A DNA stretch of 15,756 bases from Candidatus Nanopusillus sp. (GTDB lineage: Archaea > Nanobdellota > Nanobdellia > Nanobdellales > Nanobdellaceae): assembly GCA_028276785.1 (NCBI GenBank), contig JAPYVP010000010.1:1-15756 (forward strand), written 5' to 3'. Below, piece after piece: positions 1 to 15,756 of this stretch (the stretch's first letter is position 1; each line of letters starts with the position of its first letter). Below the pieces are notes generated by a model. The model made no database searches and was not told where the DNA came from. It saw only the letters and a program-made list of their open reading frames with translations. Made by a program: the position numbers and the translations under genes.

Positions 1-464
1 CTTTCATAGGGCATTATTATTCCAATAGATTTAAGATGTTCAATTCTATCATAGATTTGTCTAGAAATGTGGTGCAAAGCTTTATAAGATGAAATAGATT
101 GAGCTAAATCCATGGCAATATCTTTTATAAAACTATCCTTTAAATCCATATCATCTAAAAATCTTTTAATTGTAGAAGTTAAACGCTTATCATAATCATA
201 ACTCAAGTTTAACAAAATTCTAGTTCTACCAATAATTGTATGCTTATTCCAGTCCATTAAAACAGGTCTATATCTAGAACCATCATGATATGCTAAATGA
301 GTTAATAGAGCATCCTGATTTAAGAAATCTGAAACATCATAAAAGAAAGCAATTGCTAAAGCATCAAAATCAGTAGCAGCTTCTAGTTCATCCTTTTCAG
401 GGAAAACCTTGACTAAAGAATTTTTTCCAAAATAAATATCCTTAAAATATACATATTGAGACAT
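1..464 (-). CDS. hypothetical protein, C-terminus cut by the window edge (N-term MSQYVYFKDIYFGKNSLVKVFPEKDELEAATDFDALAIAFFYDV...)
   Basis: There is an ATG at 464..462 on the minus strand, and the frame stays open to base 1 (about 154 codons). It is missing from the ORF track only because it has no stop inside the window. It follows the 493..915 gene on the same strand after a 28-nt gap. No family recognised. Confidence 0.6.
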   Translation of the reverse strand, partial: MSQYVYFKDIYFGKNSLVKVFPEKDELEAATDFDALAIAFFYDVSDFLNQDALLTHLAYHDGSRYRPVLMDWNKHTIIGRTRILLNLSYDYDKRLTSTIKRFLDDMDLKDSFIKDIAMDLAQSISSYKALHHISRQIYDRIEHLKSIGIIMPYE

Positions 465-492
465 AAGAAAAAAGAAAGAAAAAACTTAGGCC

Positions 493-915
493 TTAGATAG
501 ATGCCGATGGTGATCCTCTGTAGCCTGGCATTGAAACTGCATTTACTACTTGAAATATTAATGCTATTACAACTACTGAAATTACTAATATAACTACCAT
601 TGGTAAGACGTTTAATAAGAATACAAATGCTTGTCCTGTTGCTGTAATACCTTGATATGTTTCAGTATATTCTGTGCTAACTAATTGTGCTAATGTATTT
701 TGTGCTTGACTAATTGAGTTTTGTACTGCTGTGTTATTTGCATATGTTTGGCTTATTTGGTTCAATTGCTGTAATCCTAATGCATACTGTTGTGCTGTTA
801 ATGGCAATACTGTTGTACCAAATGCTCCTGTTATTACTATACCCAATACTGATAATAGGCCCAATACTAAAATTGCTAAACCCAATTGTACTAGTGCATA
901 TGCCCATGGCTCCAT
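493..915 (-). CDS. two-helix hydrophobic virion-type protein resembling spindle-shaped-virus major capsid proteins (SSV1 VP1/VP3-like)
   Basis: 140 aa. It has an N-terminal TM helix (LVQLGLAILVLGLLSVLGIVI), a Q/N/T/S-rich middle of about 55 aa with an NNT sequon, and a C-terminal TM helix. The segment TGQAFVFLLNVLPMVVILVISVVVIAL recalls SSV1 VP1 ...TNATLLNLVPLFYILVLIIVPAVVA; that sequence is recalled from memory, not searched. A TTTAAAAA box on the minus strand (946..939) lies 31 nt upstream of the ATG. Confidence 0.7.
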   Translation of the reverse strand: MEPWAYALVQLGLAILVLGLLSVLGIVITGAFGTTVLPLTAQQYALGLQQLNQISQTYANNTAVQNSISQAQNTLAQLVSTEYTETYQGITATGQAFVFLLNVLPMVVILVISVVVIALIFQVVNAVSMPGYRGSPSASI

Positions 916-995
916 AACTTTTATAAATTTATTCCTCCTTTTTAAACTTTTTAATGGTTATAACTTATATATTATTACTTAAATCTTACTAAAAA

Positions 996-1442
996 TTATT
1001 GTGAAAATAAATATTTTTTGAATACTTTTATTATTTGATCATAAATTTCCTCCATATCCTTAATCGAATCTCCTATTAGCTCCATGCTAGCAACTGTCTT
1101 CTCTATTTCTCTGATTCTATCTAACTCTTTTCTTTTGTTATCTTTTTTACTTTTGTTTTCTTTAGTCTCTTCATCTTCATTAGAATTTTCTTTTTTATCA
1201 TCTTCTTCATTGGAATTCTCTTTTTTATTATCATCCTCATTAGAATTTTCTTTTTTATCATCTTCCTGTTTTTTGTATAAGCTAATAATAAGATAACAAT
1301 CTTCTAATAAAATCAATAGTTTATTCTTTAATAGATCTATATCATCATTAGTAGCCCTTAATTTAGCTCTAGCAAATGAGAGTTGAAAATCTAATAGATG
1401 TGCTAAAAAAACATTCTTTAACTGTTGATCTATATATACCAT
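996..1442 (-). CDS. hypothetical acidic/lysine-rich protein with a 10-aa tandem repeat (DDKKENSNE-type)
   Basis: 148-aa ORF. Helical N- and C-terminal parts flank three copies of a (E/D)DDKKENSNE repeat encoded by a 3 x 30-nt tandem repeat. Only 13 nt separate it from the upstream gene's stop, so it is probably in an operon. Confidence 0.7.
   Translation of the reverse strand: MVYIDQQLKNVFLAHLLDFQLSFARAKLRATNDDIDLLKNKLLILLEDCYLIISLYKKQEDDKKENSNEDDNKKENSNEEDDKKENSNEDEETKENKSKKDNKRKELDRIREIEKTVASMELIGDSIKDMEEIYDQIIKVFKKYLFSQ
1178..1267 (-). repeat. 3 x 30-bp in-frame tandem repeat inside the 996..1442 CDS
   Basis: Units at 1178-1207, 1208-1237 and 1238-1267 read cattagaattttcttttttatcatcttctt / cattggaattctcttttttattatcatcct / cattagaattttcttttttatcatcttcct. 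They differ at only a few positions. Confidence 0.9.
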
Positions 1443-1455
1443 TTTAACTTATTAC

Positions 1456-1884
1456 TTATAATATCTTAAAGTTTCTTTTTTGCTTTTCAGAAAATTTAGG
1501 CTCTTCTTCATATAAGTTTGACTTTATAGTATATCCTCCAGTAACTGCACTTAAAATTTCCATAATTCTACTTAAAATATACATTAAAACCCTATAATCA
1601 ACTTTACCCCATCTAATATAATCATCATAAGTCATAAGTTCAAGTAATATTTTTTCTAAAGTTCCTTTTTTAGATAAATCGTCTGTAACTTTAGCTGAAG
1701 ATACATATAAATAAACATTAGTAATTAAAGATCTAACCTTTTTTAGATAATTTTCATCTAGAACCCTATAATTTGCAGAAACATATAAATTACTAGTGTT
1801 TCCTACTTCTTGCAAAAGTCTAATTATCTCTGGTAATAATTGATATCTAAGATCTCCTAATGATAAAAAGGAGGTATCGGCCAT
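1456..1884 (-). CDS. hypothetical protein
   Basis: 142-aa ORF. Its ATG overlaps the upstream gene's stop in a TAATG junction (1882..1886), which implies translational coupling. No family recognised. Confidence 0.7.
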   Translation of the reverse strand: MADTSFLSLGDLRYQLLPEIIRLLQEVGNTSNLYVSANYRVLDENYLKKVRSLITNVYLYVSSAKVTDDLSKKGTLEKILLELMTYDDYIRWGKVDYRVLMYILSRIMEILSAVTGGYTIKSNLYEEEPKFSEKQKRNFKIL

Positions 1885-2387
1885 TACTTCTGAATAGCTG
1901 CAAGAGTTTTAGCCAAATTTATAGCATCTAACAAATACTGCTTTAAACCATTTTCTAGTTCTTCATCTAATTTAGTTGGTTTAAATTCCCACTCTGCTGG
2001 ATATATCTCTTTTTTATGTAAAATTACTCTTACAATGTCTCCATCTATTTGTATTTCTGGAATTTGCTCATACTGTATTATATCAATTTGAGAAACAAAC
2101 TTTATGTCTCTCGCATTCTTATCTATTATATACTTAAAGATATTTAAACCAGTAAGCAATATTCCCTGCATTCTATTAGTTTCTTTATTTTGTATTTCTC
2201 CAACTTTCATTGCTATATTTTTATTGATATCTAAATGCAATAAATAATACCTTGACTCACTTACTTCTTGTCCATTATAATAGTACTTTTTAGTAACCTT
2301 TGGTTTTGCTTTTGGCTCTTTTATATTAAACTCTATTATAATAGCTTCTTCTAATTCCTGAGGTTCCTTAAAAACTTTCATACCCAT
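1884..2387 (-). CDS. hypothetical protein (ORF is open to 2411; start at 2387 preferred)
   Basis: The ORF is 175 aa if it starts at 2411. The ATG at 2387 (MGMKVFKEPQ...) lies 33 nt from a minus-strand TTTATATA box (2420..2413). This mirrors exactly the plus-strand box (2391..2398), which lies 33 nt from the ATG at 2424. No family recognised. Confidence 0.65.
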   Translation of the reverse strand: MGMKVFKEPQELEEAIIIEFNIKEPKAKPKVTKKYYYNGQEVSESRYYLLHLDINKNIAMKVGEIQNKETNRMQGILLTGLNIFKYIIDKNARDIKFVSQIDIIQYEQIPEIQIDGDIVRVILHKKEIYPAEWEFKPTKLDEELENGLKQYLLDAINLAKTLAAIQK

Positions 2388-2390
2388 ATA

Positions 2391-2420
2391 TTTATATATA
2401 GGTGATAACATATATATAAA
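2391..2420. promoter_or_regulatory. interleaved divergent promoter pair: perfect inverted repeat TTTATATATA-N10-TATATATAAA
   Basis: Bases 2391-2400 and 2411-2420 are exact reverse complements. Each arm lies 33 nt upstream of the ATG it faces (2424 on plus, 2387 on minus). Confidence 0.55.
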
Positions 2421-2423
2421 TAT

Positions 2424-2741
2424 ATGGGTCAGGTATTAATAGATATTACCGTACCTGTGGCACCGGCAAGTAGAAAATTTATACATCATATATATGCAGG
2501 AGTAGGCTCTGCAGTACCTGAAATTACAAAATATTTTAAAAGAGATTTTGCTAAAATGACTAAGGAATTAAGTACTAAAATTACAGAAAGAGTTAAACCT
2601 GGTAGTTATATTAAGGGACAAATCATTTTAGAATATGATGATAATACAAAAAAGCCGCTTAAAATGTTTACAAAAGAATTAATAATTTATGATTCAGGTA
2701 ATGTATATAATTACCCAATAATTGTAGAAAATAACAAGTAA
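2424..2741 (+). CDS. hypothetical small protein, paralog of 8104..8415
   Basis: 105 aa. It aligns colinearly with the 103-aa product of 8104..8415. Shared motifs are PV.P..R.FI..(I/V)Y near the N-terminus and DDNTK.P.K(M/L)(F/Y)T near the C-terminus. It is the divergent partner of the 1884..2387 operon. Confidence 0.7.
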   Translation: MGQVLIDITVPVAPASRKFIHHIYAGVGSAVPEITKYFKRDFAKMTKELSTKITERVKPGSYIKGQIILEYDDNTKKPLKMFTKELIIYDSGNVYNYPIIVENNK

Positions 2742-2743
2742 GC

Positions 2744-3592
2744 TTAACCTAATGGATTAGTTACATGATAAGTCGCATTTGCTGAATATATACCATTTAT
2801 TGGTAATGTTATATTAGTTAGATTAGTCTGATTTAGGAAAGTTACATAATGGATATTGCTTAAAGTTGATGCAAATGTTCTTAAGAATAGGAATGCTATT
2901 ATGAAGATTGTTCCAATTAATATAAGATATAATATAGATCTAACTTGCTCCATTGATTTTGGCATGAAAAATCCTAATAACTTTAATATACCAGACTTAT
3001 TACTATTTGGTATTGCTTCCTCTAAATCTATTTCCTTATAAGATTGCATAATATCTACTAAATCATATAAAATACCTTTCGGATTACCTGTAAAGTTCTT
3101 TATTTTTTTATTTTCTAATTCTTTGACCTTTATTGGTATTCCTCTAGAATCCCTTAACAAATCTATTATTTTTAGTAATTGATTTGGTTGAGTATTTTCT
3201 AGATATTTCAAAATCCACTGTATAGCTACAAAATAATAGATCTCAATATCTGAAGCATTTTCTAAATCTTCAATATTGGGAATCAATGATTTAGGTACTT
3301 TTTCTTTCATTAATGGTAAACCATAATATACTAAAATAGCTTTAACTTTACCCTCAGATCCATTATATTCTATAGTCCATTCATCTACAAAATTATCAAA
3401 AATAGATAACAGAAATCTGTCTGCCTGTCTAATATAGGCAAAAGGTGGACGATATTGTATTAAATATATTATATTGTCCTTAAAGGGAAAATTTACTTTC
3501 TTTGGTTTATTATTGTTGTTGCTTTTGAGTGGGAACCACATTTGAAGGTGGAAGTGATGGATAATTTTGCCTTGTAGTATTATATATGCCAC
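2744..3592 (-). CDS. hypothetical protein with a C-terminal TM anchor and a sequon-rich tail (alternative start at 3541)
   Basis: 282-aa ORF. The first 83 nt overlap the upstream gene, and the internal ATG at 3541 (MWFPLKS...) shortens that overlap. A TM helix (ILYLILIGTIFIIAFLFL) is followed by the tail FLNQTNLTNITLPINGIYSANATYHVTNPLG, which carries four N-x-S/T sequons. Confidence 0.65.
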   Translation of the reverse strand: MAYIILQGKIIHHFHLQMWFPLKSNNNNKPKKVNFPFKDNIIYLIQYRPPFAYIRQADRFLLSIFDNFVDEWTIEYNGSEGKVKAILVYYGLPLMKEKVPKSLIPNIEDLENASDIEIYYFVAIQWILKYLENTQPNQLLKIIDLLRDSRGIPIKVKELENKKIKNFTGNPKGILYDLVDIMQSYKEIDLEEAIPNSNKSGILKLLGFFMPKSMEQVRSILYLILIGTIFIIAFLFLRTFASTLSNIHYVTFLNQTNLTNITLPINGIYSANATYHVTNPLG

Positions 3593-3971
3593 TTGCTACT
3601 GAATCATAACTCATTAATAAGGAACTTATTATTGAACTATAGTAAATAATTAGCTCTTTAGCCATCTCTTTTGTAGGTTCATCTGTAATTCTACCAGATT
3701 CTAATAACATTTGTAAAGTTACTAAATATCTATGAAGCCTCTCAGTTACCTTATTTATCTTAAAAATTACTTTTGCTTGTCTCTCATCATTAGCTATATA
3801 TTGTTTAGAGAAAGTTTCTTTAATAGTTTTAGACATAGGATAATCAAATGGATTTACCTCAAAAATTTCAAATAATCTTTTCCTAGAAGTTGCTTTTTCA
3901 ATTTCTCTTAAAGTAAATTCTTCTACTTTTTTAATTACATCTTCATTTTCCTCTTTGTTTTCCTCAGCCAT
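3510..3971 (-). CDS. hypothetical protein
   Basis: 153-aa ORF with an acidic N-terminus (MAEENKEENED). It forms a TAATG junction with the upstream gene at 3969..3973. Confidence 0.7.
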   Translation of the reverse strand: MAEENKEENEDVIKKVEEFTLREIEKATSRKRLFEIFEVNPFDYPMSKTIKETFSKQYIANDERQAKVIFKINKVTERLHRYLVTLQMLLESGRITDEPTKEMAKELIIYYSSIISSLLMSYDSVASGIYNTTRQNYPSLPPSNVVPTQKQQQ

Positions 3972-4276
3972 TAAATTAAAAACTTAAATGCAGGTAATAT
4001 TAAGCCTATAACTATTCCAGTAAAAGCAAATAAAGCTAATACAATAGCATAAACTCTTATTATAGCATATTCGTTATAATACTCTGCTCTTGTAACAACA
4101 TGAGCTACTATTATTATTGCAAATATAGATGCAATCATAAGAGGTACCCCTATTAAAGGAGTTACTACTAATGAATAAGCTATCATTGCTAAAGCTCCTT
4201 TTATAGAGAATCCTAATATGAGAGACCATATTAGTGCAAATACCAAAAACCTTTTTGATAGCAAGTCATTCATCAT
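3971..4276 (-). CDS. small polytopic membrane protein
   Basis: 101 aa, almost entirely hydrophobic, with about 3 predicted TM helices by eye. Confidence 0.75.
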   Translation of the reverse strand: MMNDLLSKRFLVFALIWSLILGFSIKGALAMIAYSLVVTPLIGVPLMIASIFAIIIVAHVVTRAEYYNEYAIIRVYAIVLALFAFTGIVIGLILPAFKFLI

Positions 4277-4300
4277 TATAATTTATATGTAATAACCTAT

Positions 4301-4741
4301 TTATATGTTTTGCTTTTCTTTTATATATGCCCCTATATAATATATTAAGAATATTGCATTTAGTATAACTAAAGCAATAGCAAAAAATGCAATATCCTGA
4401 TTAATTCCTGTAACTAATGTCATTACATCTAATAACTCGCTGTATATATTTAAATCATTCAAAACTGAAGCATAAATATACTGCAATGTTGATAGATAGT
4501 TAATTAAAGAATTAGTAATAAAAGGGATTAATGCAGAAAAGACGGCATTTAAGAAAAATAATAAAGATTTAGTTCTATGAGATAACTTTAAAGCTAAAAT
4601 TATTGAGAAAAATATTAGGGGTGCAATTGTTAATAAAATAAATATAAAAGGATACATATTTATAAAAGCTATACTATTAGGACTTATCATTATGTTTACT
4701 GTATAGTTAAAGGTTTGATTATATAGATAAGGTAAACCCAT
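4301..4741 (-). CDS. polytopic membrane protein
   Basis: 146 aa with about 4 hydrophobic helices. A minus-strand T/A box lies about 29 nt upstream of the ATG at 4741. Confidence 0.75.
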   Translation of the reverse strand: MGLPYLYNQTFNYTVNIMISPNSIAFINMYPFIFILLTIAPLIFFSIILALKLSHRTKSLLFFLNAVFSALIPFITNSLINYLSTLQYIYASVLNDLNIYSELLDVMTLVTGINQDIAFFAIALVILNAIFLIYYIGAYIKEKQNI

Positions 4742-4940
4742 AAATTATATATTATTATTCTACTTAAAAATTTTATAAGATCAAAAACAATATATTTATT
4801 ATGGCAAAGAAAAAAGAACAAAAACAAGAAGAACATCAATCAAAGAAATAAAGCTTAACTATTTATAGGTAATGGGGTCCGTAGGTAAAAGGAGAAATTA
4901 GATAGGAAGATAAAGGCCCGATACTTTCTTTTTTGTTTTT

Positions 4941-5249
4941 TTAGAGGTGACTAAGATTTATATAAAAGAGTAGGATAATAGCTATAATAGCAATATATTT
5001 TATTAGGCTCCACTTTGTAAAAGTTTTAAATAATAATCCCAAAGGTATTGGGATGAGTCCTGCTATAATAAACCATAAAAATAAGTTTCCTGTGGGATAA
5101 ATAATTAAGAAAATAATTAAATTAACAAAAAATGCAGTAAGACCTTCTTTAATACTTTTTGGAGTTACAAAAAACCTATAAATTCCGAGCCCAAATAAAC
5201 TATATAAAACTATAGTTATTAAGATATAGCTAAAAGAATAAAAGTCCAT
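4941..5249 (-). CDS. small polytopic membrane protein
   Basis: 102 aa with about 3 hydrophobic helices. Its ATG overlaps the stop of the small upstream ORF (TAATG at 5247..5251). Confidence 0.75.
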   Translation of the reverse strand: MDFYSFSYILITIVLYSLFGLGIYRFFVTPKSIKEGLTAFFVNLIIFLIIYPTGNLFLWFIIAGLIPIPLGLLFKTFTKWSLIKYIAIIAIILLFYINLSHL

Positions 5250-5395
5250 TAGTGGTTTTCTCTATCTTCTCTTATAGATCTTTCAGAAAAACCTTTCTTA
5301 CTTAGTTTGATAGTTTTTAATAGCTTAATCCATTTATTTACATACTCTTTAGCTTTAATATTCATATCTCTTCTCTCTTTCAATGGTTGTTCCAT
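5249..5395 (-). CDS. small basic hypothetical protein (48 aa, MEQPLKERRDMNIKAKEYVNKWIKLLKTIKLSKKGFSERSIREDRENH)
   Basis: It falls below the ORF-track size cut-off and I translated it by hand. It fills the gap between 5420..5608 and 4941..5249 on the same strand, and its stop overlaps the next ATG. Confidence 0.45.
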   Translation of the reverse strand: MEQPLKERRDMNIKAKEYVNKWIKLLKTIKLSKKGFSERSIREDRENH

Positions 5396-5419
5396 CTGAG
5401 TATGTTACTGTTTCTTTTA

Positions 5420-5608
5420 TTATTTTTCTAACTTTCTTAGGTTTAAGCTCATGTAATTTGTCCAATTGATAGGATAGGTATCTGGTAAATCTTCTTGAAA
5501 TATTTTTTGTTTAAGTTTATTTGCTTCTTCAGATAATTCAGAAAGTACTTTATCTAATTCTTTAAGAGCCTCTTCAATCATTGGTCTTCCATTTTTACTT
5601 TCTTCCAT
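5420..5608 (-). CDS. small coiled-coil hypothetical protein
   Basis: 62-aa ORF. Its start lies 1 nt after the upstream gene's stop. Confidence 0.6.
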   Translation of the reverse strand: MEESKNGRPMIEEALKELDKVLSELSEEANKLKQKIFQEDLPDTYPINWTNYMSLNLRKLEK

Positions 5609-5609
5609 A

Positions 5610-5765
5610 TTATCTATGTCTTGATCTACGTTTATAAGTTTTTGGCATTCTATAATTATTATACGATCTAAAACCTCTCGGCACTATAACATATGATAAA
5701 AGTAGAGCAACAAAGGAACCCATCATTAACATGAAAAGTATTGTTAATACTGTAAAGAAGCTCAT
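5610..5765 (-). CDS. single-pass membrane peptide with a basic tail (ORF is open to 5858; start at 5765 preferred)
   Basis: The product is MSFFTVLTILFMLMMGSFVALLLSYVIVPRGFRSYNNYRMPKTYKRRSRHR. A TTTATAAA box (5788-5795) lies 30 nt upstream of the ATG at 5765. The extra 31 N-terminal codons of the long ORF are simply the tandem-repeated promoter DNA. Confidence 0.6.
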   Translation of the reverse strand: MSFFTVLTILFMLMMGSFVALLLSYVIVPRGFRSYNNYRMPKTYKRRSRHR

Positions 5766-5786
5766 CTTATAAATTATAGTCTTAAA

Positions 5787-5847
5787 TTTTATAAAAATGG
5801 TATCACAGCTAAGAAATTTTTTTATAAAAATAGTATTATAGCTAAGA
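5787..5847. repeat. 2 x 28-bp direct repeat at a 33-bp period, each copy carrying a TTTATAAA box
   Basis: TTTTATAAAAATGGTATCACAGCTAAGA (5787-5814) matches TTTTATAAAAATAGTATTATAGCTAAGA (5820-5847) at 25 of 28 positions. The repeat sits in the divergent region between ATG 5765 (minus) and ATG 5877 (plus). Confidence 0.85.
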
Positions 5848-5876
5848 TTTTTATACATCGCAATTAAATATATATT

Positions 5877-6044: not shown

Positions 6045-6063
6045 AGATTTCTGCCCTTTGGGG

Positions 6064-6210: not shown

Positions 6211-7068
6211 ATGTTTGAAGGTGACTATTATATTGATGTAGGAATTGATAATAATGATTTTAAACTAATCTTAAATGATAACTCAGGAAATATAATTAAA
6301 GTATTTGATAATACTCCAGAAATAGTTAATCAAGCATGGAGAGAATTAGCTCAACTAATTGATAATTATGATCTAATGATTTATGGTAGAGTAAAGATGT
6401 ATAAAGATGGGGATTATATCTTTGATCTATTTAAAAGATATGCATTTATTATATTTATAGAACAGAATGCTTCTTATTTAGCCAGTTTAGATGGTTATAG
6501 AATAAAATACCCAAACTTTACTTATTACATTGCTACACTATATAAACTTTATAAAGCATTTGTTAATCCAAAAACTACTTTAAGTCCTCAAGAATTTATT
6601 TTAATTATTAATCCTTTATTAACTAAAATAAGACCAAACCTTTCCGGACAAGAACTAATTAAATTATTTGACACCTTTGCAATGAATTATTATAAAGCAA
6701 TAGATTATATAAATAAAGAACGTTTAGGTCTTAATAAGGTTATGATTGCAGCTGAAAGACCAATAAATGAAGAACCTAGTACATTAATTACACAACCTAA
6801 TGAAATGGCTATTAGACCAGCTCCATCAATTAATCAACCAAATGCAATAACAGCTTCAGCCCAACCAATGCCTTCTTCACAAAATCCAGGACCACTACCA
6901 ATGAATAATCCACCACAGGTAGTACCTCAAAGACCTCCAGAAATAGTTCAACCAAAAGAAGAAATAACCAAACCAATAGAAGAGAACAAACCAGTTCCAA
7001 CAGAAGAGGCAAATATTAGAAACATTAAAATAGAGCATAGAAGACTTAAATATTCTGAAAATGGATAG
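6211..7068 (+). CDS. hypothetical protein with a Pro/Gln/Asn-rich C-terminal region
   Basis: 285 aa. A globular N-terminal part of about 180 aa is followed by a low-complexity region (PAPSINQPNAITASAQPMPSSQNPGPLPMNNPPQVVPQRPPEIVQPKEE). It overlaps the integrase start by 8 nt (ATGGATAG). Confidence 0.75.
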   Translation: MFEGDYYIDVGIDNNDFKLILNDNSGNIIKVFDNTPEIVNQAWRELAQLIDNYDLMIYGRVKMYKDGDYIFDLFKRYAFIIFIEQNASYLASLDGYRIKYPNFTYYIATLYKLYKAFVNPKTTLSPQEFILIINPLLTKIRPNLSGQELIKLFDTFAMNYYKAIDYINKERLGLNKVMIAAERPINEEPSTLITQPNEMAIRPAPSINQPNAITASAQPMPSSQNPGPLPMNNPPQVVPQRPPEIVQPKEEITKPIEENKPVPTEEANIRNIKIEHRRLKYSENG

Positions 7069-8103: not shown

Positions 8104-8415
8104 TTAAGAAATTTCTACACTTATCTTTTCAGCCAATTCTTTTTCTATATTCCATACCTTAAGGTTTATAGTATATAACTTTTTAGGTTCTTTTGTATTA
8201 TCATCTACTAATAATGCAAGTACTCCTGACACCATCTTTCCATTTCCTATTACTTCCTCTATTTTATAACCCATTCTTTGTATTAGCTTTGTTATTTCTT
8301 TCTTATATTTTTCTGTTAGCTCTTTATCCTTTGCTGCTATTGCTCCATATACATTTGTAATAAAACTCCTACCTGTTGGATTTACGGGCCTTAATAATTC
8401 TATAGATATTTCCAT
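8104..8415 (-). CDS. hypothetical small protein, paralog of 2424..2741
   Basis: 103 aa, colinear with the 105-aa product of 2424..2741 (see that entry). Its ATG lies 30 nt from the shared TATA box at 8438-8445. Confidence 0.7.
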   Translation of the reverse strand: MEISIELLRPVNPTGRSFITNVYGAIAAKDKELTEKYKKEITKLIQRMGYKIEEVIGNGKMVSGVLALLVDDNTKEPKKLYTINLKVWNIEKELAEKISVEIS

Positions 8416-8436: not shown

Positions 8437-8437
8437 A

Positions 8438-8466: not shown

Positions 8467-9036
8467 ATGGTAAAATGGCAGATAACAAATATAAATACTG
8501 TAGTCTATTTTAATGTCCCTATTAAATTAGGGCCTTTGGCAGATAAAATATGCAAAGATTATGTTATAAGTTATCATCCTAAAGATTTTCCTGGATTAGT
8601 TATTTACCTTGATAAATTTAGGATAAATATCTTTAGAACAGGATCAATAACTATTACTGGAATAAAAAAAGTTGAGGATTTAACTTCTTCTGTTGATGAA
8701 GTAAGAAATTTATTAAAAAAGTATAATGTTAATTTACCAGAAAAATATAAACTAGAAATAGTAACCAGCTCAATAATTGGAAAATTTGATTATGATAAAA
8801 TAGACATTGAAAGGATGGGTATTGAATTGGAGAATGCTATATATGATCCTGAAAGATTCTCAGCAGCTATTGTTTATTATAATATTTCCCCAAACTACAA
8901 AGTATCTTTTAATATCTTTAAAAATGGTACTTTTGTTGGTGCTGGTTTCAAAAGTGAGCCAAACATACTTATCCAGCATATAGATCAGATAGTAAATTCT
9001 TTTCAAGAGAATATAGTTAAAAAGTATGCTAAATAA
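8467..9036 (+). CDS. tbp: divergent TATA-binding protein (two TBP repeats)
   Basis: 189 aa. Repeat 1 reads ITNINTVVYFNVPIKLGPLADKICKDYVISYHPKDFPGLVIYLDKFRINIFRTGSITITGIKKVED. Repeat 2 reads LEIVTSSIIGKFDYDKIDIERMGIELENAIYDPERFSAAIVYYNISPNYKVSFNIFKNGTFVGAGFKSEPN. Both follow the archaeal TBP pattern I.N.V......L......(Y)eP(E).FPG(L)......(L)IF.SGK...TG.KS.E, but repeat 2 has lost FPG. Confidence 0.85.
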   Translation: MVKWQITNINTVVYFNVPIKLGPLADKICKDYVISYHPKDFPGLVIYLDKFRINIFRTGSITITGIKKVEDLTSSVDEVRNLLKKYNVNLPEKYKLEIVTSSIIGKFDYDKIDIERMGIELENAIYDPERFSAAIVYYNISPNYKVSFNIFKNGTFVGAGFKSEPNILIQHIDQIVNSFQENIVKKYAK

Positions 9037-9603: not shown

Positions 9604-9611
9604 TCTTTTTT

Positions 9612-9920
9612 ATGAATAAATTTTATCGAAAGGGCTATTATTATGAAAGAAAGGTCAAGCAATTTCTGATATCAAAAAATTATTTGGTTTGGCGTTCTCC
9701 AGGTTCTAAATCTCCAGTAGATATTATTGCAATAGATGATAAAGGTTATGTAAAATTAATTCAGGTTAAAAGCCATAAAAATATAAAGAAAGAAGAATTA
9801 GAAACCCTTAAAGAATTAGCAAAAAAGTATGAAAATGTGCCTAATGTTGAAGTAGAACTCTGGATCTTTGATAAAAAGCAGAAAATAATATACAATAAAA
9901 AAGCCCTTTTAAATTTATGA
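9612..9920 (+). CDS. hjc: Hjc-like Holliday junction resolvase-fold (PD-(D/E)xK) nuclease
   Basis: 102 aa. RKGYYYERKVKQFLISKNYLVWRSPGSKSPVDIIAIDDKGYVKLIQVKSHK parallels Sulfolobus Hjc RKGSAVERNIVSRLRDKGFAVVRAPASG...PDIIALKNGVIILIEMKSRK (recalled from memory). E12, D37 and K53 are present, but the E of the ExK motif is Gln51. Confidence 0.7.
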   Translation: MNKFYRKGYYYERKVKQFLISKNYLVWRSPGSKSPVDIIAIDDKGYVKLIQVKSHKNIKKEELETLKELAKKYENVPNVEVELWIFDKKQKIIYNKKALLNL

Positions 9921-9942
9921 AAAGTAAAACTAATACTTATAT

Positions 9943-10560
9943 ATGGAAACTGATGAAGAACTCTTTATAAATCCATGGGAACCTAATGCTAGTAGAGTCA
10001 TAGATAGTTTAACAAGAAAATATCTTATAGCTTATGATAAATTAGAAAGATTAGCTAAAACTTCAGGAGTTGTACAAGCAAAAACAGTTCAAGATACTTT
10101 AATGGAAATATTTAGATGGGAGTTAATTGCAAGATTTAAAATACCTTTTATGGTTGATGGACAAAATGCAGTAACTTTATATAATCCACTCATTTACAAA
10201 ATGTGGGGTTATGTACCATTTGTCGGTGGTGTTGCAAGTAAATTCTTACAAAATAGCCTATTCTTAATATTTGATAAATTTAAGTATGATACAGAACCAT
10301 TTGATGATGCTTATTATTTTAAAGTAGTTGATTTTATGAAAAAATTAGCAGATTATAAAGATAATATTAATAAATCTTACTTGAGGGCCTTTTTATTTAA
10401 CAATACAATAGTATACCTTGAATATAAAACAACATTCATGTTTGGAGAAAAGGGAAACTACTTTGTATACTTTAAACCATTAGAACCTAGAGAAGATGAA
10501 GTTAGAAATGCAATGGTTGATCTATATTATGCAGTCTCTGATCTTGCAAGAAAAGATTAA
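9943..10560 (+). CDS. hypothetical protein
   Basis: 205-aa ORF, the last gene of the plus-strand block. No family recognised. Confidence 0.7.
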   Translation: METDEELFINPWEPNASRVIDSLTRKYLIAYDKLERLAKTSGVVQAKTVQDTLMEIFRWELIARFKIPFMVDGQNAVTLYNPLIYKMWGYVPFVGGVASKFLQNSLFLIFDKFKYDTEPFDDAYYFKVVDFMKKLADYKDNINKSYLRAFLFNNTIVYLEYKTTFMFGEKGNYFVYFKPLEPREDEVRNAMVDLYYAVSDLARKD

Positions 10561-10561
10561 T

Positions 10562-10729
10562 CTATATATTTAAAAGTATTTTTAATAGTGCTAGCACATC
10601 TAGAACAACTATAATTCCAGCTAAATATTTTATTATTTCATTTGAAAATAAATTTAGGTTCCAAATTAGAGCTAATTCCACTAAGGTACCCCCAACTACT
10701 ATTAAACTTGTAATTATCCTAGAGTCCAC
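10562..10729 (-). CDS. possible 55-aa two-helix membrane peptide with a GTG start
   Basis: The hand translation is (V/M)DSRIITSLIVVGGTLVELALIWNLNLFSNEIIKYLAGIIVVLDVLALLKILLNI. It has no ATG and only an in-frame GTG after an upstream TAA, so the call is weak. Confidence 0.3.
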   Translation of the reverse strand: MDSRIITSLIVVGGTLVELALIWNLNLFSNEIIKYLAGIIVVLDVLALLKILLNI

Positions 10730-10780
10730 ATATAATAATTGCCGTTATTTTTTTAAAGTTTTATATAAAAGAATTAGTAT

Positions 10781-11305
10781 ATGAAATTACAATTAGTAGA
10801 AAGATATCTTAATGAAAATATTCCAAATTTTCTAAAAAAATCTTTAGCTGCACATTATAAAGACGTTCTTACCTTTAGTGAGGCTGTACCTTCACTTTAT
10901 ATTAAATATTTAGCTTATCATGCTATCGCATATTTTCAATACTTAAACAGTTTTGGGGTTAATGATGCAATAAAACTTTATAAAGAATATATAAACTCTA
11001 ACGGTAAAATAACAACTTTTAAGTATAATAGTTTTGAGATACCTTTAAAATTTGATGATCTTTTAAAAAGTGTAAGCCAAACACTAATTCAATATAAAGA
11101 GATAGTACAAAGTATTAAAGAAAGAGAGTATATTTTACATTTTAGGTATGAACATAATCTAATAGCTTCATATATAACTATTTATAATTTAATAAAAGCT
11201 TTTAAAAAGATAGGGCTTGAAGGTATTGTATCATTAAAAAAGCATTGGAGGCTGATTGATATAGTATTTATCCCTTATTTATTAAAGGAAAATGGACAAA
11301 GATAA
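10781..11305 (+). CDS. integrase-like paralog lacking the catalytic arginines (degenerate tyrosine-recombinase fold)
   Basis: 174 aa. AIAYFQYLNSFGVNDAIKLYKEY aligns with the integrase segment AVAYLQITNGLRASEAIFAMKEF, placing Gly at the R65 position. HNLIASY...KAFKKIG aligns with HTLRYVF..KAVKKVG, placing Ile at the R141 position. It shares IAYFQY, EIPLK.D, SL(K/R)KHW and PYLLK with 13460..13975. A T/A box at 10750-10757 lies 31 nt upstream of the ATG. Confidence 0.65.
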   Translation: MKLQLVERYLNENIPNFLKKSLAAHYKDVLTFSEAVPSLYIKYLAYHAIAYFQYLNSFGVNDAIKLYKEYINSNGKITTFKYNSFEIPLKFDDLLKSVSQTLIQYKEIVQSIKEREYILHFRYEHNLIASYITIYNLIKAFKKIGLEGIVSLKKHWRLIDIVFIPYLLKENGQR

Positions 11306-11891
11306 TATGAACAATACTTTAAATATGATAAATCAAATATTGGGATATCAAGATTATACAAACATAGAGAAGGCTATCTTAACATTATTATACCTTTATA
11401 ATGATAAAGTAGATGTTTATAGATTACATAAGATGGTTTTTTTAGCTTCTTTAGATATTCCCGAATTAAGAGAAGAACTTGATCCGAGGCCATCTATGTA
11501 TAAAGGTATATTTTATGATGAAAATATAGCTGAAGCAATTGAATCTTTAAAATTTGATGGCTTAATAGAGGGGGATACTTTTTTACAGTTATCCTCAAAG
11601 GGAAAGGCCCTCCCATTTCTGTTATCTGATAAAGAAAAAGATATTTATAATGAAGTTGTAGATTTATTTAAGGATACAACTGATGATGAAATCCTTGCAA
11701 TATTCTATTATAAACTATATGACCAAATAAAAATATTAAAACCATTAAAAAGGATCGAAAGCAATAGAAAGAAATTAGCTCTAAGTTTATATCAAAAAGG
11801 AAAAATCTCTATTGAAGCTGCTTCAGAGATTGCTGGTATGAATATAAAAGATTTTATGGAAATGCTAAAGAAAAAGAAATTACTTTCCTAA
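11292..11891 (+). CDS. fusion of a YwgA/SocA(Panacea)-like winged-helix region and a C-terminal UPF0175-type HTH antitoxin domain
   Basis: 199 aa. YRLHKMVFLAS...YKGIFYDENIAEAIESLKFDGLIEG resembles the YwgA/DUF4065 pattern RLQK(L/M)V(Y/F)(L/I)A...YGPYSeeL...IeeL...G(L/F)(I/L). The C-terminus RKKLALSLYQKGKISIEAASEIAGMNIKDFMEMLKKKK resembles the UPF0175 consensus (LA..LY..GK(L/I)S.G.AAE.AGM....F.E.L). It overlaps the upstream gene by 14 nt; an alternative ATG is at 11307. Confidence 0.6.
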   Translation: MDKDNMNNTLNMINQILGYQDYTNIEKAILTLLYLYNDKVDVYRLHKMVFLASLDIPELREELDPRPSMYKGIFYDENIAEAIESLKFDGLIEGDTFLQLSSKGKALPFLLSDKEKDIYNEVVDLFKDTTDDEILAIFYYKLYDQIKILKPLKRIESNRKKLALSLYQKGKISIEAASEIAGMNIKDFMEMLKKKKLLS

Positions 11892-11895
11892 AAAA

Positions 11896-12057
11896 TTATT
11901 GAGCTACTTTTGTCTTAACAAATACATACACTGTTCCTTTACAATATGGACATGTGCCTTTTATAGCTTTCTTTCCATTCTTTAAAGTAACTTCTTGTGG
12001 ATTTTCAACGTTTACTTTTTTCTTACATTTAACACAATATGCCATATATTGCTCCAT
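11896..12057 (-). CDS. small zinc-ribbon protein (DUF5679-like)
   Basis: The hand translation is 53 aa: MEQYMAYCVKCKKKVNVENPQEVTLKNGKKAIKGTCPYCKGTVYVFVKTKVAQ. The CxxC...CxxC spacing and the flanking residues match the DUF5679 pattern AYCVKCK.K.....P..VT.KNG.....G.CP.CG(T)K(V/M). It is below the track cut-off. Confidence 0.6.
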   Translation of the reverse strand: MEQYMAYCVKCKKKVNVENPQEVTLKNGKKAIKGTCPYCKGTVYVFVKTKVAQ

Positions 12058-12121
12058 CAATAATATATATTGCCCCTATTTATAAACTTTTTGAATTATG
12101 CCGCATAACTTAAAGGGCAAA

Positions 12122-12129
12122 TTTATAAA
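12122..12129 (+). promoter_or_regulatory. TATA box upstream of tnpB
   Basis: TTTATAAA lies 30 nt upstream of the ATG at 12152. A second box at 12079-12086 lies further upstream. Confidence 0.45.
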
Positions 12130-12151
12130 TCTTGAATATATAAATAAAAAC

Positions 12152-13330
12152 ATGAGTAGGGGGAAGGGTAAGCTAATGATTGCATATAAATTTAGGGCTT
12201 ATCCTACCCCCGAACAAGAGAAAAAGCTTCATGAAATTTTTGCTACTGAAGCTAAAATCTATAATGAAATGATTAAGAAAGCTAATGAGATGAATACGCA
12301 TGACTTAAAAACTGTTGAAAAGACTTTAAGACAAATAATTCATGATTTAGAAAGCTTATGGAAAGGTAAGATATATTCTATGGTTATATATCCTATTGAA
12401 GAGAAATTACTTTATAACTTAAAAGGTTTAGCTCGATTAAAGAAAAAAGGTAAAAAAGTTGGTTCTCTAAAACCAAAAGAAAAGTTTACTTTCTTATTTT
12501 ATAGACATCATGGGTTTAGATTAGATATTGATGGAGTTGAACTATCTAAATTGGGAAAAATAAAAGTACTCTTTCATAGACCCATAGAAGGAAAAATAAA
12601 AGGGGTTGGAATAAAATTAGATAAAGATAATAAATGGTATGTTTATATTGTATCTGAAATAACTCCAAAACCCTTACCTAAAACTGGTAAGGTTGTTGCT
12701 ATTGATTGGGGCATTGAAAAACTTTTAACTACTTCTGATGGTATTGCTATACAAAACCCTTTAATATTAGATAAATTAGAAGAGAGGATTAAAAGATTAC
12801 AAAAAGCTTTATCAAGAAAAAAGAAAGGCTCTAAAAATTATGAAAAAACCAGAGTTAGATTAGCAAAACTTTATAAGTATGCAAAAAACTTAATTAATGA
12901 TTATTTACATAAGGTTACTACATGGTTAGTTAAAAATTATGATGTAATATATGTAGAAAATATAAGGGTTGAAAAATTAATACAAACAAATAAAGCTAAA
13001 AAGTTAAGGAGGCATATTTTACAAGCTAATTACTTTAAGTTTTTGGAGCTTTTAGAGTATAAAGCTAAATTGTATGGTAAACAGGTTATAAAAGTCTCAC
13101 CTAAAAATACATCTAAAAAATGTTCTAGATGTGGCTATGTTAATCAAAAGTTATCTCTAAATGATAGAATATTTAAATGTCCTAAATGTGGTTTAGAAAT
13201 TGATAGAGACTATAATGCTGCTCTAAATATCTTAAATGCGGGGCTGGGGCAGCCCAAAGCGCCTGTGGAGGGGAAACCTCTGCTGTACATCTCCTTCTCT
13301 GAGGGGGTGTACAGCAAGTTTCCCGGATGA
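12152..13330 (+). CDS. tnpB: TnpB (OrfB) RNA-guided endonuclease, IS200/IS605 family
   Basis: It has the typical N-terminus MIAYKFRAYPTPEQEKKL (that ATG is at 12176; the ORF is open from 12098). The RuvC motifs are VVAIDWGIEK (D), VIYVENIRV (E) and EIDRDYNAALNI (D). The zinc finger is CSRCGYV...CPKCGLE. The start at 12152 is chosen on TATA spacing, and 12176 is equally plausible. Confidence 0.9.
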   Translation: MSRGKGKLMIAYKFRAYPTPEQEKKLHEIFATEAKIYNEMIKKANEMNTHDLKTVEKTLRQIIHDLESLWKGKIYSMVIYPIEEKLLYNLKGLARLKKKGKKVGSLKPKEKFTFLFYRHHGFRLDIDGVELSKLGKIKVLFHRPIEGKIKGVGIKLDKDNKWYVYIVSEITPKPLPKTGKVVAIDWGIEKLLTTSDGIAIQNPLILDKLEERIKRLQKALSRKKKGSKNYEKTRVRLAKLYKYAKNLINDYLHKVTTWLVKNYDVIYVENIRVEKLIQTNKAKKLRRHILQANYFKFLELLEYKAKLYGKQVIKVSPKNTSKKCSRCGYVNQKLSLNDRIFKCPKCGLEIDRDYNAALNILNAGLGQPKAPVEGKPLLYISFSEGVYSKFPG

Positions 13331-13425
13331 AGCAGGAAACATGTGGTAAGCCTGGAAAGGGCTTACCTAAATAGGAGAAAAGCAGTAAAGCAGAAAAGCA
13401 GAGAGAAAGGCCCACTTCTGTGAGC
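13235..13425 (+). ncRNA. putative TnpB omega RNA (reRNA) scaffold overlapping the tnpB 3' end
   Basis: This is a G+C-rich island with consecutive plus-strand stems. GGGCTG/CAGCCC pairs 13241-46 with 13250-55. GAGG/CCTC pairs 13268-71 with 13277-80. CTGTACA/TGTACAG pairs 13283-89 with 13308-14. GGTAAGCC/GGCTTACC pairs 13345-52 with 13360-67. Known TnpB omega RNAs overlap the 3' end of tnpB and the right end of the element. The exact ends are unknown. Confidence 0.6.
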
Positions 13426-13430
13426 TTTCT

Positions 13431-13438
13431 TTTATAAA
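13431..13438 (+). promoter_or_regulatory. TATA box for 13460..13975
   Basis: TTTATAAA lies 29 nt upstream of the ATG at 13460. It is part of the recurring 13-14-mer TTTATAAACTTTT(T), also found at 12079 and 14773. Confidence 0.5.
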
Positions 13439-13459
13439 CTTTTTCTAAATATTTATTTT

Positions 13460-13975
13460 ATGAAATTAAAGCTAGATCCTAAAATTTTAAACATGCCTCT
13501 TGAAGATAAAATAAAAGATGCTTTAAAAGATGCTAAAAATATAGAAGATAAGATTTATCTTTCCATAGCATATTTTCAATATATAAATAAGCTCAGTACT
13601 AACAAAGCTATTAGATTATTTAAGGAACTCTTATTATCCGATGGGCAGAAATTAGGTTATCCCTTTTCGATTTATTATGCACAAGATAATAAACTTTTAA
13701 TAAGAAAAATAGAGATACCATTAAAAATTGACGAATTTTTGGCAAATTATATTAATGAAATTAAAAACTATAAGAGTTTAATAAGTAAAGTAACTAAAAG
13801 CACATATAATAAATATTTAAGAAAGTATTTAAATATAAAATCTTCAGATATTTTAGCTTATATAATATATAAAATGATTGAAGAGATAGGTATACACACT
13901 TTAATATCTTTAAGAAAACATTGGGCTTTATTCAGTAGGAATCTACTACCTTATTTATTAAAAAATAAGACTTAA
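13460..13975 (+). CDS. integrase-like paralog lacking the catalytic arginines (second copy)
   Basis: 171 aa. SIAYFQYINKLSTNKAIRLFKEL aligns with the integrase segment AVAYLQITNGLRASEAIFAMKEF, placing Ser at the R65 position. It has no H-x-x-R equivalent (SSDILAY). It shares EIPLKID, SLRKHW and PYLLK with 10781..11305. Confidence 0.65.
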   Translation: MKLKLDPKILNMPLEDKIKDALKDAKNIEDKIYLSIAYFQYINKLSTNKAIRLFKELLLSDGQKLGYPFSIYYAQDNKLLIRKIEIPLKIDEFLANYINEIKNYKSLISKVTKSTYNKYLRKYLNIKSSDILAYIIYKMIEEIGIHTLISLRKHWALFSRNLLPYLLKNKT

Positions 13976-14529
13976 TTTTGAAAAAATTTGCTTATTTCTG
14001 TAGAAAAGTTTACAAAAGCCCTTTTTACTACATATTGATTTGATCTAAATGTTACATCCTCTATAATTTTAAAGAATTTTTCAAATAATTCCCGATCAAA
14101 TAAAACCTTTTGATATTGGTCTGGTAAAACAATATCTGGATCATTATCTTTTAAATATAAAGCTATTTGATATGCAATATCAATATATTTAGTTTTTATT
14201 AATATTGCTTCCATAAGTGGTACACTATCTAAGCCCTTTTTAAATATATAGTCTACATATAATTTAACTTTAAGCAAAAATAGAAATGCTATAAAATTGC
14301 TAAACTCTTTACTATCCTTATTCTTTAAATCATTTAACAGAGGCTCTATTAATCTCTTTAAGCCCTTACTCGCATTAGCTTTAATCTCACTAAAACTCAA
14401 TGCTCTTATAGGATTTGCATTTTCTAAAGATCTTATATACGCTATGTAATCTTTGGCTTCTAGGGAATTCTTACCCTCTTTTATTATATATAGATTATCT
14501 GTTAATTTGCCAATTACTGCAAACCCCAT
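13972..14529 (-). CDS. hypothetical protein, paralog of 14954..15553
   Basis: 185 aa. With the 199-aa neighbour it shares an N-terminal MG....(L).(N/D).L.I...G and the central motifs F..F(L/F)(L)L(I/L)K(L/V) and (V/I)AY(N/Q)(L/I)A.Y(F/L).D. A TTTATAAA box (14553-14560) lies 31 nt upstream of the ATG at 14529. Confidence 0.7.
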   Translation of the reverse strand: MGFAVIGKLTDNLYIIKEGKNSLEAKDYIAYIRSLENANPIRALSFSEIKANASKGLKRLIEPLLNDLKNKDSKEFSNFIAFLFLLKVKLYVDYIFKKGLDSVPLMEAILIKTKYIDIAYQIALYLKDNDPDIVLPDQYQKVLFDRELFEKFFKIIEDVTFRSNQYVVKRAFVNFSTEISKFFQN

Positions 14530-14552
14530 ATATAATATAATGTAAGCATATA

Positions 14553-14560
14553 TTTATAAA
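14553..14560 (-). promoter_or_regulatory. TATA box for 13972..14529
   Basis: A palindromic TTTATAAA lies 31 nt upstream of the minus-strand ATG at 14529. Confidence 0.5.
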
Positions 14561-14870
14561 CCATAGGAGGAGGGGTACTAAACAATCTCCATCATTGTAT
14601 GACTTTTTCAGGTGCCCCTCCTCCTCTGAAGTCACCCCCATCCTTTCCCCCACAAATTGATTTTTTTGAGACTCGGGGGGTACCATCCCCTAAAATCAGT
14701 GAGATTTGAAGAGATTGAATTTTTTTATCTCTAATAGTTGGTAACAAATATTTATAAAGAAATTTGTTTTTGTTTATAAACTTTTCGTTGTGTACCGTGT
14801 TAGTGGTGGTTACATGGTTCAAATTTGGGGTCTTACCCACTAACTCGGGGGTCTCTGTCCCACGAGCTAG
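14561..14870. ncRNA. G+C-rich structured island, candidate small RNA(s); strand and ends unresolved
   Basis: A 14-bp stem pairs AGGAGGAGGGGTAC (14565-78) with GTGCCCCTCCTCCT (14612-25). Its one imperfect position is a G-U pair on the plus strand and a C-A mismatch on the minus strand. Other elements are a GGGG/CCCC hairpin (14675-90), an 8-bp stem GTTAGTGG/CCACTAAC (14799-806 with 14837-44) and a CTCG.GGG/CCC.CGAG hairpin (14844-66). Plus-strand T7 runs lie at 14661-67 and 14720-26. Confidence 0.35.
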
Positions 14871-14921
14871 TAGTAATTCATAGTTTATAAATTCATAAGC
14901 ATGATCAAAACTAATATACAT
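14592..14921 (-). CDS. possible small protein overlapping the G+C-rich island (ORF is open to 14942)
   Basis: The frame stays open across AT-rich stretches where stops would be expected. The ATG at 14921 lies 30 nt from a TTTATAAA box (14944-14951). Against this, the composition is atypical (GDGTPRVSKKSICGGKDGGDFRGGGAPEKV) and the stop falls in the loop of the 14-bp stem. This call conflicts with the ncRNA reading. Confidence 0.35.
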   Translation of the reverse strand: MYISFDHAYEFINYELLLARGTETPELVGKTPNLNHVTTTNTVHNEKFINKNKFLYKYLLPTIRDKKIQSLQISLILGDGTPRVSKKSICGGKDGGDFRGGGAPEKVIQ

Positions 14922-14953
14922 AATAAAAATATTGCTTTTCATATTTATAAATA

Positions 14954-15553
14954 TTATTTAGCCTTTTCCTTGAATAGAGAATATACTTTATCTACATTTT
15001 CTTTATTTAATTCTATAATTTGTTCTTCTTTAAATATTTGATTCAGCTTCTTATAATAATTAGTAAACTGATTTTTGTCTTCAAGTTTATTTAATATATT
15101 ATCTGAAAAACCAACTCTATAGTTTAATTCATCTAGGAAATATTGAGCTAAATTATAAGCAACCTCATCTTCAAAGCCTACTATTAATTGAGAAAGTTCT
15201 ACTAAACTTTTACTATATGTATAAGATATTAATGTTTTAATAGCCAATTTTATCAATAATAGAAAGCTAAATAATTTATAACCAAGATCTTCTCCTCCAC
15301 CTGTTTTTTCAGCTATATTTTGTGTTAGAAGTCTATGTTTTTGTAATATTGTTCTTTCTAGTTGTTTAATAGTCATAATTTTTATTCCGCTTTTAATTAT
15401 TTCTTCAGGAGAGATATCTTCAGCTTCTTCACTTACAAAGAGTTCATCCTTCTTATAAATATAAAAAATAATATCAGTACCTTTATTATCTTCATCACCG
15501 GTTCTATAAATTACTAAACTATTTCCATAAAGATTAGATATTATTGCCCCCAT
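14954..15553 (-). CDS. hypothetical protein, paralog of 13972..14529
   Basis: 199-aa ORF. Its start overlaps the upstream gene by 13 nt. Shared motifs are listed under 13972..14529. Confidence 0.7.
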   Translation of the reverse strand: MGAIISNLYGNSLVIYRTGDEDNKGTDIIFYIYKKDELFVSEEAEDISPEEIIKSGIKIMTIKQLERTILQKHRLLTQNIAEKTGGGEDLGYKLFSFLLLIKLAIKTLISYTYSKSLVELSQLIVGFEDEVAYNLAQYFLDELNYRVGFSDNILNKLEDKNQFTNYYKKLNQIFKEEQIIELNKENVDKVYSLFKEKAK

Positions 15554-15756
15554 TGTTTTATCAAGGAATCAAACTCATTTAAGTGAGCATAGATTGCATT
15601 CCATTTATCTTTATTAGATATTAGATCTATTCTATTCCTTAATGAATGAGATACATACATATGTATTAGCTTTACAAAGTTTTTAAGTATATCTTCTTCA
15701 GGTTTTTCATTATCTAAATCATAGAGTAATTTTAATGAGTCAAATATCAATACATC
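15541..15756 (-). CDS. hypothetical protein, N-terminus outside the window
   Basis: The frame is open to the window edge. The track's start at 15750 is a TTG, and the two codons upstream of it are also open. No family recognised. Confidence 0.55.
   Translation of the reverse strand, partial: DVLIFDSLKLLYDLDNEKPEEDILKNFVKLIHMYVSHSLRNRIDLISNKDKWNAIYAHLNEFDSLIKQWGQ

Follow-up and report, generated by a model that had tools for sequence, protein, structure and literature searches.

To our knowledge, Nanoarchaeotal virus 1 (NAV1) is the only virus described for the Nanoarchaeota, and viruses of DPANN archaea and of nanoarchaeal symbionts are otherwise almost unknown. Munson-McGee, Rooney and Young described NAV1 in 2020 (J Virol 94:e01213-19), as an uncultivated virus. 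Its genome is reported to be circular and to have been assembled from virus-enriched metagenomes. The stretch of DNA analysed here (the window) is the complete 15,756-bp contig C29 of a Candidatus Nanopusillus genome bin, G000, which comprises 597,562 bp in 39 contigs. In our view it is very probably a piece of a NAV1-lineage virus genome, amounting to about 40-45% of a double-stranded DNA of roughly 36 kb, and was binned together with its Nanopusillus host from a hot spring. A sequence-only reading of the window had seen in it an undescribed archaeal virus or integrative element, consisting mostly of ORFans and matching no known family. The viral or integrative nature of this ORFan-rich DNA was borne out by its sporadic distribution, by 36 syntenic metagenome loci, by the presence of an integrase and by a composition atypical of the bin. 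The element is, however, neither undescribed, as three of the window proteins are 66-86% identical to NAV1 proteins, nor present in the window as a whole.

Relation to Nanoarchaeotal virus 1 and to metagenome loci

The link to NAV1 is carried by three genes of the window:

1884-2411, minus strand: the most conserved gene of the element (hereafter the core gene), ortholog of NAV1 NV1_43, 86.2% identity to QFW68521.1
7061-7642, plus strand: small 193-aa tyrosine integrase (phrog_9208, 3e-15; Pfam 0.004, under the cut-off; STSV2 integrase, E 9e-11), 82% identical to the NAV1 "viral integrase"
8467-9036, plus strand: virus-borne TATA-binding protein (TBP) with two TBP repeats (PF00352, E 1.7e-23, in two stretches, 82.7 bits against a cut-off of 22.9), 66% identical to the NAV1 "TATA binding protein of transcription factor TFIID"

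The first of these matches, annotated as "hypothetical protein NV1_43 [Nanoarchaeotal virus 1]" in a record of 35,629 bp, extends over window positions 1887-2387. The orthology to three NAV1 proteins makes the window a fragment of the NAV1 lineage, and hence of a kind of element that has already been reported, and the amino-acid identities of 66-86% point to a different strain or species. Host genus and type of habitat are shared with NAV1 as well, and a related metagenome contig of 36,204 bp, of which the last 14 kb were read, is close to the NAV1 genome in size. The window copy differs in carrying an insertion of a TnpB gene and a zinc-ribbon gene that is absent from all other relatives seen. 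Among the members listed for the 90%-identity clusters of eight window proteins and of one protein of the related locus L029, none came from NAV1.

Several points weigh against this assignment. The comparison with NAV1 covers three proteins (in the range QFW68504-QFW68521 and neighbours). Neither sequence nor fold comparisons revealed a capsid or packaging protein, so that the word virus rests on the report on NAV1 and on the gene content. The contig ends, which the sequence-only reading had proposed to inspect for signs of circularity, yielded no terminal repeat in C29, and a simple finder detected no CRISPR arrays in the bin that could have been used for spacer matching.

When 40 related genomes were searched at the DNA level, a syntenic copy turned up in only one other genome of the genus, G003, where it is split over contigs C31, C12 and C33; the same genome also carries a second, more diverged copy on its C13. 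The core-gene profile was matched in two of 19 genomes of the family, and a search with it did not find the gene in three closed genomes of the family or in 300 other genomes sampled across the phylum. Public metagenome data contained 46 protein clusters matching the profile and 36 loci whose gene order is collinear with that of the window. By the identity of their core protein to that of the window these loci fall into three subtypes, at 79-98% (type A, including the window), about 53% and 45-51%, and they include the 36,204-bp contig (Ga0081534_100080) and a copy, L038, that lies within a contig of 113,387 bp (Ga0080008_143969).

The relatives also display the part of the genome that continues beyond the window. 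After the homolog of the gene at 3-464 they encode a first giant protein (1124-2020 aa), a small one of 127-129 aa and a second giant, with DUF2341 and a length of at least 1400 aa, followed by a 126-aa protein and then by a P-loop ATPase of 439-448 aa. In the bin G000 the giant proteins, the DUF2341 protein and the ATPase are found on contigs C13 and C16. Genes are truncated at either end of C29, and its assembly evidently broke at these strain-variable giant genes. As stated in the sequence-only reading, the window encodes no P-loop ATPase, polymerase, primase or Rep, but ATPases are part of the element and sit on other contigs. No homolog of the ATPase was detected by tblastn in a collection of 50,697 phage and archaeal-virus records, and a phmmer search of the PDB with two of the ATPases returned nothing. 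An ATPase homolog of about 52% identity in genome G007, considered as a possible integrated copy, was set aside because it stands alone, with no other element genes, and the same is true of a homolog in G010. Contigs C6, C21 and C24 of G000 are pieces of a second, diverged element, which has its own TBP (on C6). The G000 contigs C13, C16, C6, C21 and C24 correspond to loci L059, L058, L061, L062 and L063, respectively.

Beyond NAV1, the likeness to described viruses is confined to a few genes. The window gave no DNA match in the 50,697 virus records by megablast and blastn, the core gene had no match there by tblastn, and scans of IMG/VR with the integrase, the core gene and the core-gene alignment found nothing. 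With the Bicaudaviridae and other large spindle-shaped viruses (ATV, STSV1/2, SMV1-4, ATSV) and with YNP1 and YNP2 the element shares an integrase of phrog_9208 (about 26-32% identity, profile E 1e-15 to 1e-18). YNP1 and YNP2 have a TFB-like gene where the element has its TBP. Profile hidden Markov models of the element family, seeded from the window, from G003 C31, C33 and C13, from L054 and from G000 C6 and C21, nevertheless matched only integrases and TnpB in ATV, YNP1 and YNP2; neither a head protein of the ATV type nor a MoxR-type ATPase, as expected of a bicaudavirus, was found, and the G+C content and the host are different too. The 1124-aa giant protein of a relative (G003:C12 856-4230, locus L013) shares 39% identity across 463 aa with YNP2 gp26 (NC_028992.1, 14284-18132). 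This last likeness hints that symbiont viruses have exchanged genes with those of Sulfolobales-type hosts, or else at a wrong host assignment of YNP2.

The host link and the captured genes

The tie to Nanopusillus is seen in the TBP, which the window carries together with the following genes:

8104-8415, minus strand: 103-aa protein, a copy of a single-copy gene found in every Nanopusillus genome searched
9612-9920, plus strand: Hjc-type Holliday junction resolvase (PF01870, 3.9e-8, 33.6 bits against a cut-off of 21.1; phrog_6591)
11896-13330: insertion specific to this copy, consisting of a gene for a zinc-ribbon protein of about 50 aa (11896-12060, minus strand) and a TnpB gene (12098-13330, plus strand)

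Each genome of the family possesses one TBP, and extra copies occur only in the two element-carrying bins. Maximum-likelihood analysis places the seven element TBPs in one long-branched clade (100/98) nested within the host-TBP clade of the genus (98/95), for which the best explanation is one capture from a host of the Nanopusillus lineage and fast evolution thereafter. Paralogs on the host chromosome exist for the TBP as well as for Hjc, the 103-aa protein and the zinc-ribbon protein, and the last three are likewise closest to Nanopusillus genes. All four are shown to be captured genes of the host lineage. The element is binned with two Nanopusillus genomes, its TBP nests among theirs, and its G+C content (27%) fits that of the contigs of the bin (22-30%), which together identify a Nanopusillus as the host.

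The Hjc of the window is 48% identical to the host Hjc on C34, and identities among the type-A relatives amount to 86-89%. The 103-aa protein shares 61-69% amino-acid and 71-80% nucleotide identity with the host copies, such as those at G000:C31 8939-9247 and, in the closed genome G004, at about 262.4 kb of C1. The zinc-ribbon gene is about 80% identical in nucleotides to a host copy on C39. The 103-aa family, which has relatives neither in Pfam nor in the PDB, is carried twice by the virus, as the host-like copy at 8104-8415 and as a diverged copy in the core block at 2424-2741. A weak lead from the ESM Atlas (0.83-0.84) to ThermoDBP-related proteins for this family was confirmed neither by a Pfam scan of 17 members nor in the PDB, and was dropped.

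The product of 8467-9036 contains the two tandem repeats by which a TBP is defined, and it is predicted to bind DNA. A 2017 review holds that archaeal viruses likely exploit the TBP and TFB of the host (PMC5569661). In the 50,697 virus records we found no TBP.

Gene content of the window

The window is tiled by about 32 open reading frames (ORFs) of at least 50 aa. The sequence-only reading had assigned just six families, and this count stands: Pfam and PHROGs recognise the TBP, Hjc, TnpB, the small tyrosine integrase and a UPF0175 domain in a fusion protein, to which the zinc ribbon is added by its CxxC...CxxC pattern. The layout it had proposed was found as well, with a minus-strand block at 3-5858 that includes five membrane proteins, a plus-strand block with integrase, TBP and Hjc, and a mixed tail. 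Its three paralog families proved real, two of them by BLASTP (105/103 aa, E 5e-17; 174/171/193 aa, 4e-22 between the paralogs and 1e-6 and 1e-5 to the integrase) and the 185/199-aa pair, non-significant in BLASTP (E 0.2), by hhalign profile-profile comparison only (95.6%, E 1.3e-8, 172 columns). The tetranucleotide correlation to the rest of the bin is 0.966 for C29, as against 0.986-0.998 for the 12 other contigs of 10-17 kb. No tRNA was found in the window, Rfam gave only sub-threshold microRNA matches, located at the palindrome 2382-2429, and a PADLOC scan for defence genes produced nothing convincing (PDC-S70 matches 11292-11891 at 1e-6). Apart from the core gene, the minus-strand block and its surroundings comprise the following features:

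3-464, minus strand: conserved 164-aa protein, truncated 10 codons short of the stop; homologs at 49-97% identity in 21 loci
493-915, minus strand: 140-aa protein whose N- and C-terminal helices are hydrophobic and whose middle is Q/N/T-rich (alignment, AlphaFold2 model); candidate major structural (virion) protein
996-1442, minus strand: 148-aa acidic protein with an imperfect 10-residue KENSNE(D/E)D repeat (direct repeats; Pfam matches to low complexity only)
1456-1884, minus strand: conserved 142-aa core ORFan; 34 homologs in related loci, no PDB relative
2382-2429, no strand: near-perfect palindrome of 48 bp with 22-nt arms (inverted repeat, 95% complementary)
2424-2741, plus strand: 105-aa core protein, diverged paralog of the 103-aa protein at 8104-8415
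2744-3592, minus strand: protein of about 280 aa; a single membrane segment at the C-terminus, 8 N-glycosylation sequons; homologs at 34-99% identity; candidate surface protein
3510-3971, minus strand: conserved 153-aa ORFan with homologs in related loci
3971-5249, minus strand: three small multi-pass membrane proteins (101, 146 and 102 aa) with 3-4 hydrophobic segments each, kept in relatives
5249-5395, minus strand: small ORF of 48 aa
5420-5608, minus strand: small ORF of 62 aa
5610-5858, minus strand: small ORF of 82 aa
5877-6044, plus strand: small ORF of 55 aa

The core gene is likely to start at Met9 (position 2387), which yields a 167-aa form encoded by 1887-2387. Its AlphaFold2 model is of high confidence (predicted local distance difference test, pLDDT, 90.4), and its sole fold match is BFVD A0A5P9U4V9 (86% identity, TM 0.92); no match was obtained in the PDB (Foldseek TM at most 0.24; VIA Z at most 4.9), where profile searches with four core families likewise returned nothing. 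The 140-aa protein encoded by 493-915 is modelled as a two-helix hairpin (pLDDT 68) with two hydrophobic segments and only 3% charged residues, and from these features we infer that it is the best candidate for a major structural or capsid protein. It presumably resembles in this respect the VP1-like capsid proteins of SSV1 of the Fuselloviridae, with their hydrophobic two-helix hairpin and few charges. No specific match by sequence, PHROG or fold connects it to them, the only hits being unspecific helical ones (Vipp1/PspA, E about 1), and the element, unlike fuselloviruses, has no DnaA-like ATPase or other fusellovirus core genes. Further along the block, positions 5264-5367 are 78-80% identical to host DNA (G000:C35 and others).

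The palindrome at 2382-2429 contains two divergent ATGGGT starts and, about 28 nt upstream of these, two inverted, back-to-back TATA-like boxes. We infer from this arrangement a twin divergent promoter serving the genes at 1884-2411 and 2424-2741, which would probably consist of an interleaved pair of promoters for leaderless transcripts. The palindrome is nearly invariant in 22 related loci covering all three subtypes, while the flanking proteins have diverged to 45-55% identity, which recommends it as a candidate target of the viral TBP.

In the plus-strand block, the integrase, the TBP and Hjc are accompanied by four further genes:

6211-7068, plus strand: 285-aa protein with a P/Q-rich C-terminal half; homologs at 51-69% identity
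7643-8098, plus strand: 151-aa ORFan; two tandem paralogs on G000:C18
9082-9603, plus strand: 173-aa ORFan with homologs in related loci
9943-10560, plus strand: 205-aa ORFan

The arginine (GLRASEA), the lysine (LAEK), the HTLR motif and the tyrosine (MEYY) of the integrase align with those of the ATV, YNP and NAV1 integrases, and in the pattern R...K...HxxR...(H/W)...Y the second histidine is replaced by tyrosine (GY for GH). Judged by these residues the enzyme is catalytically complete, and its two paralogs in the tail are inactive. The relative L044 has three diverged copies of the 173-aa ORFan in tandem (identities of 75%, 36% and 26%), at 573-2264 of contig Ga0081474_122365.

The tail, besides the insertion described above, contains these genes:

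10781-11305, plus strand: integrase paralog that has lost the catalytic Arg/His/Arg (BLASTP, profiles, alignment)
11292-11891, plus strand: 199-aa protein with a C-terminal UPF0175 domain (antitoxin-like helix-turn-helix; PF03683, 5.3e-10)
13460-13975, plus strand: second inactive integrase paralog, with both Arg and the His lost
13972-15553, minus strand: distant paralogs of 185 aa and 199 aa around a 116-aa ORF; homologs in G003:C31
15541-15756, minus strand: C-terminal 71 aa of a 147-aa protein truncated by the contig end; full-length homolog at G003:C31 8123-8566

TnpB was found in none of the related loci besides this copy, and G003:C31 has 96 bp in place of window positions 11858-13426. 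The protein, of 410 aa, has its HTH_OrfB, OrfB_IS605 (RuvC) and zinc-ribbon TNB domains all above the Pfam cut-offs (phrog_506, 9e-97); its best virus match is ORF409 of ATV (206 bits), and no further TnpB was matched in the bin (tblastn, E at most 1e-3). A host-like 150-nt segment upstream of TnpB, considered as an RNA or an att site, turned out to be the zinc-ribbon protein gene.

Integration, alternative explanations and meaning

That the window is part of an integrated and possibly defective provirus, or of a variable chromosomal island, and not of a free virus genome, seems to us unlikely, although a chain of observations in related genomes speaks for it. The copy L038, 79-84% related, lies at about 79.5-107 kb of the 113,387-bp JGI contig, to part of which the type-A copy of G003 is 99.6-99.9% identical. 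The far end of G003 C31 shares 135 bp at 100% identity with the end of C37, a contig that encodes a Lon/BrxL-like ATPase as well as an ortholog of a host membrane protein of G000:C35; on G000:C35 the gene of that membrane protein is contiguous with DNA whose G003 counterparts lie on the host contigs C22 and C38, so that G000 looks like an empty site (at about 3338-3490). The end of G003 C22 carries a TBP fragment with stop codons, which is a pseudogene, and, as calculated from the coordinates, about 35.7 kb separate the membrane gene from the end of the 113-kb contig, a figure close to the length of NAV1. The 135-bp link, however, is also present on C13 and C36, which renders the assembly graph ambiguous, C29 has no host flank, no att repeat was identified, and the NAV1 genome is reported to be circular. 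The evidence favours, but does not prove, the presence of a full-length provirus at a variable hot spot in the related genome G003. The variable locus can be followed across the genus at G003:C22 64.7-65.6 kb, G003:C37, G003:C38 31.8-33.2 kb and G000:C35 3.3-4.1 kb. In G003 it holds the TBP pseudogene fragment, small ORFs like those near the integrase and probably an entire provirus. The flanking genes adjoin each other in G000, and in the closed genome G004 no DNA similarity was found in the interval.

Still less probable is a non-viral, plasmid-like integrative element that forms no particles and whose "structural" block encodes surface and membrane proteins altering the contact between host and symbiont. 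The lack of any recognised capsid, portal or terminase fold would agree with it, as would the large share of family coding capacity devoted to membrane proteins and giant adhesin-like DUF2341 proteins, and the ATPase homologs standing alone in the G007 and G010 chromosomes. Against such an element speak the integrase, which is of the large spindle-shaped virus type, the absence of any replication initiator, relaxase or conjugation gene among the genes seen, and the orthologous NAV1 record, which was deposited as a virus and is reported to originate from virus-enriched metagenomes. A mis-binned contig, derived from a virus that infects some other hot-spring archaeon (for instance the nanoarchaeon's own Acidilobus or Sulfolobales host), could account for the deviating tetranucleotide profile and for the resemblance of the integrase and one giant protein to those of the Sulfolobales viruses YNP1 and YNP2. 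We consider this highly improbable, given a G+C content within the range of the bin as against 43% in YNP2, a TBP nested within Nanopusillus TBPs, four further genes closest to Nanopusillus chromosomal genes, and the binning of the element family with a second Nanopusillus genome too.

If the window belongs to a NAV1-lineage virus of Nanopusillus, its genes would suggest the following course of infection. The minus-strand block at 3-5858 would supply components of the virion or envelope, and in the full genome it would continue into the two giant adhesin-like proteins, which may serve attachment, and a P-loop ATPase for assembly or packaging. The integrase would provide integration and excision, and hence lysogeny; Hjc would resolve intermediates of recombination or replication; and the virus-borne TBP would redirect the host RNA polymerase to viral promoters, for example the palindrome at 2382-2429. 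An integrated form of the genome, within the chromosome of the host, is suggested by the 79-84% related copy in another Nanopusillus genome. Only tentatively, and with some doubt, we propose that NAV1-like viruses are temperate and integrate at a hypervariable chromosomal hot spot, and that they take control of transcription through their fast-evolving, once-captured TBP, which would act on the palindromic twin TATA promoter. If this is true, it would be the first functional general transcription initiation factor encoded by a virus in Archaea.

With the window and its 36 relatives, NAV1 becomes part of a diverse family in which at least three subtypes can be told apart. Characteristic of this family are a stable ORFan core, giant surface proteins that are hypervariable, a host-derived TBP, integrase paralogs that have lost their activity and, probably, integration into the chromosome. 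For the organism itself, the contigs C29, C13 and C16 of G000, and probably C6, C21 and C24 as well, are viral and not cellular, which bears on any statement about the gene content of this reduced 0.6-Mb genome.

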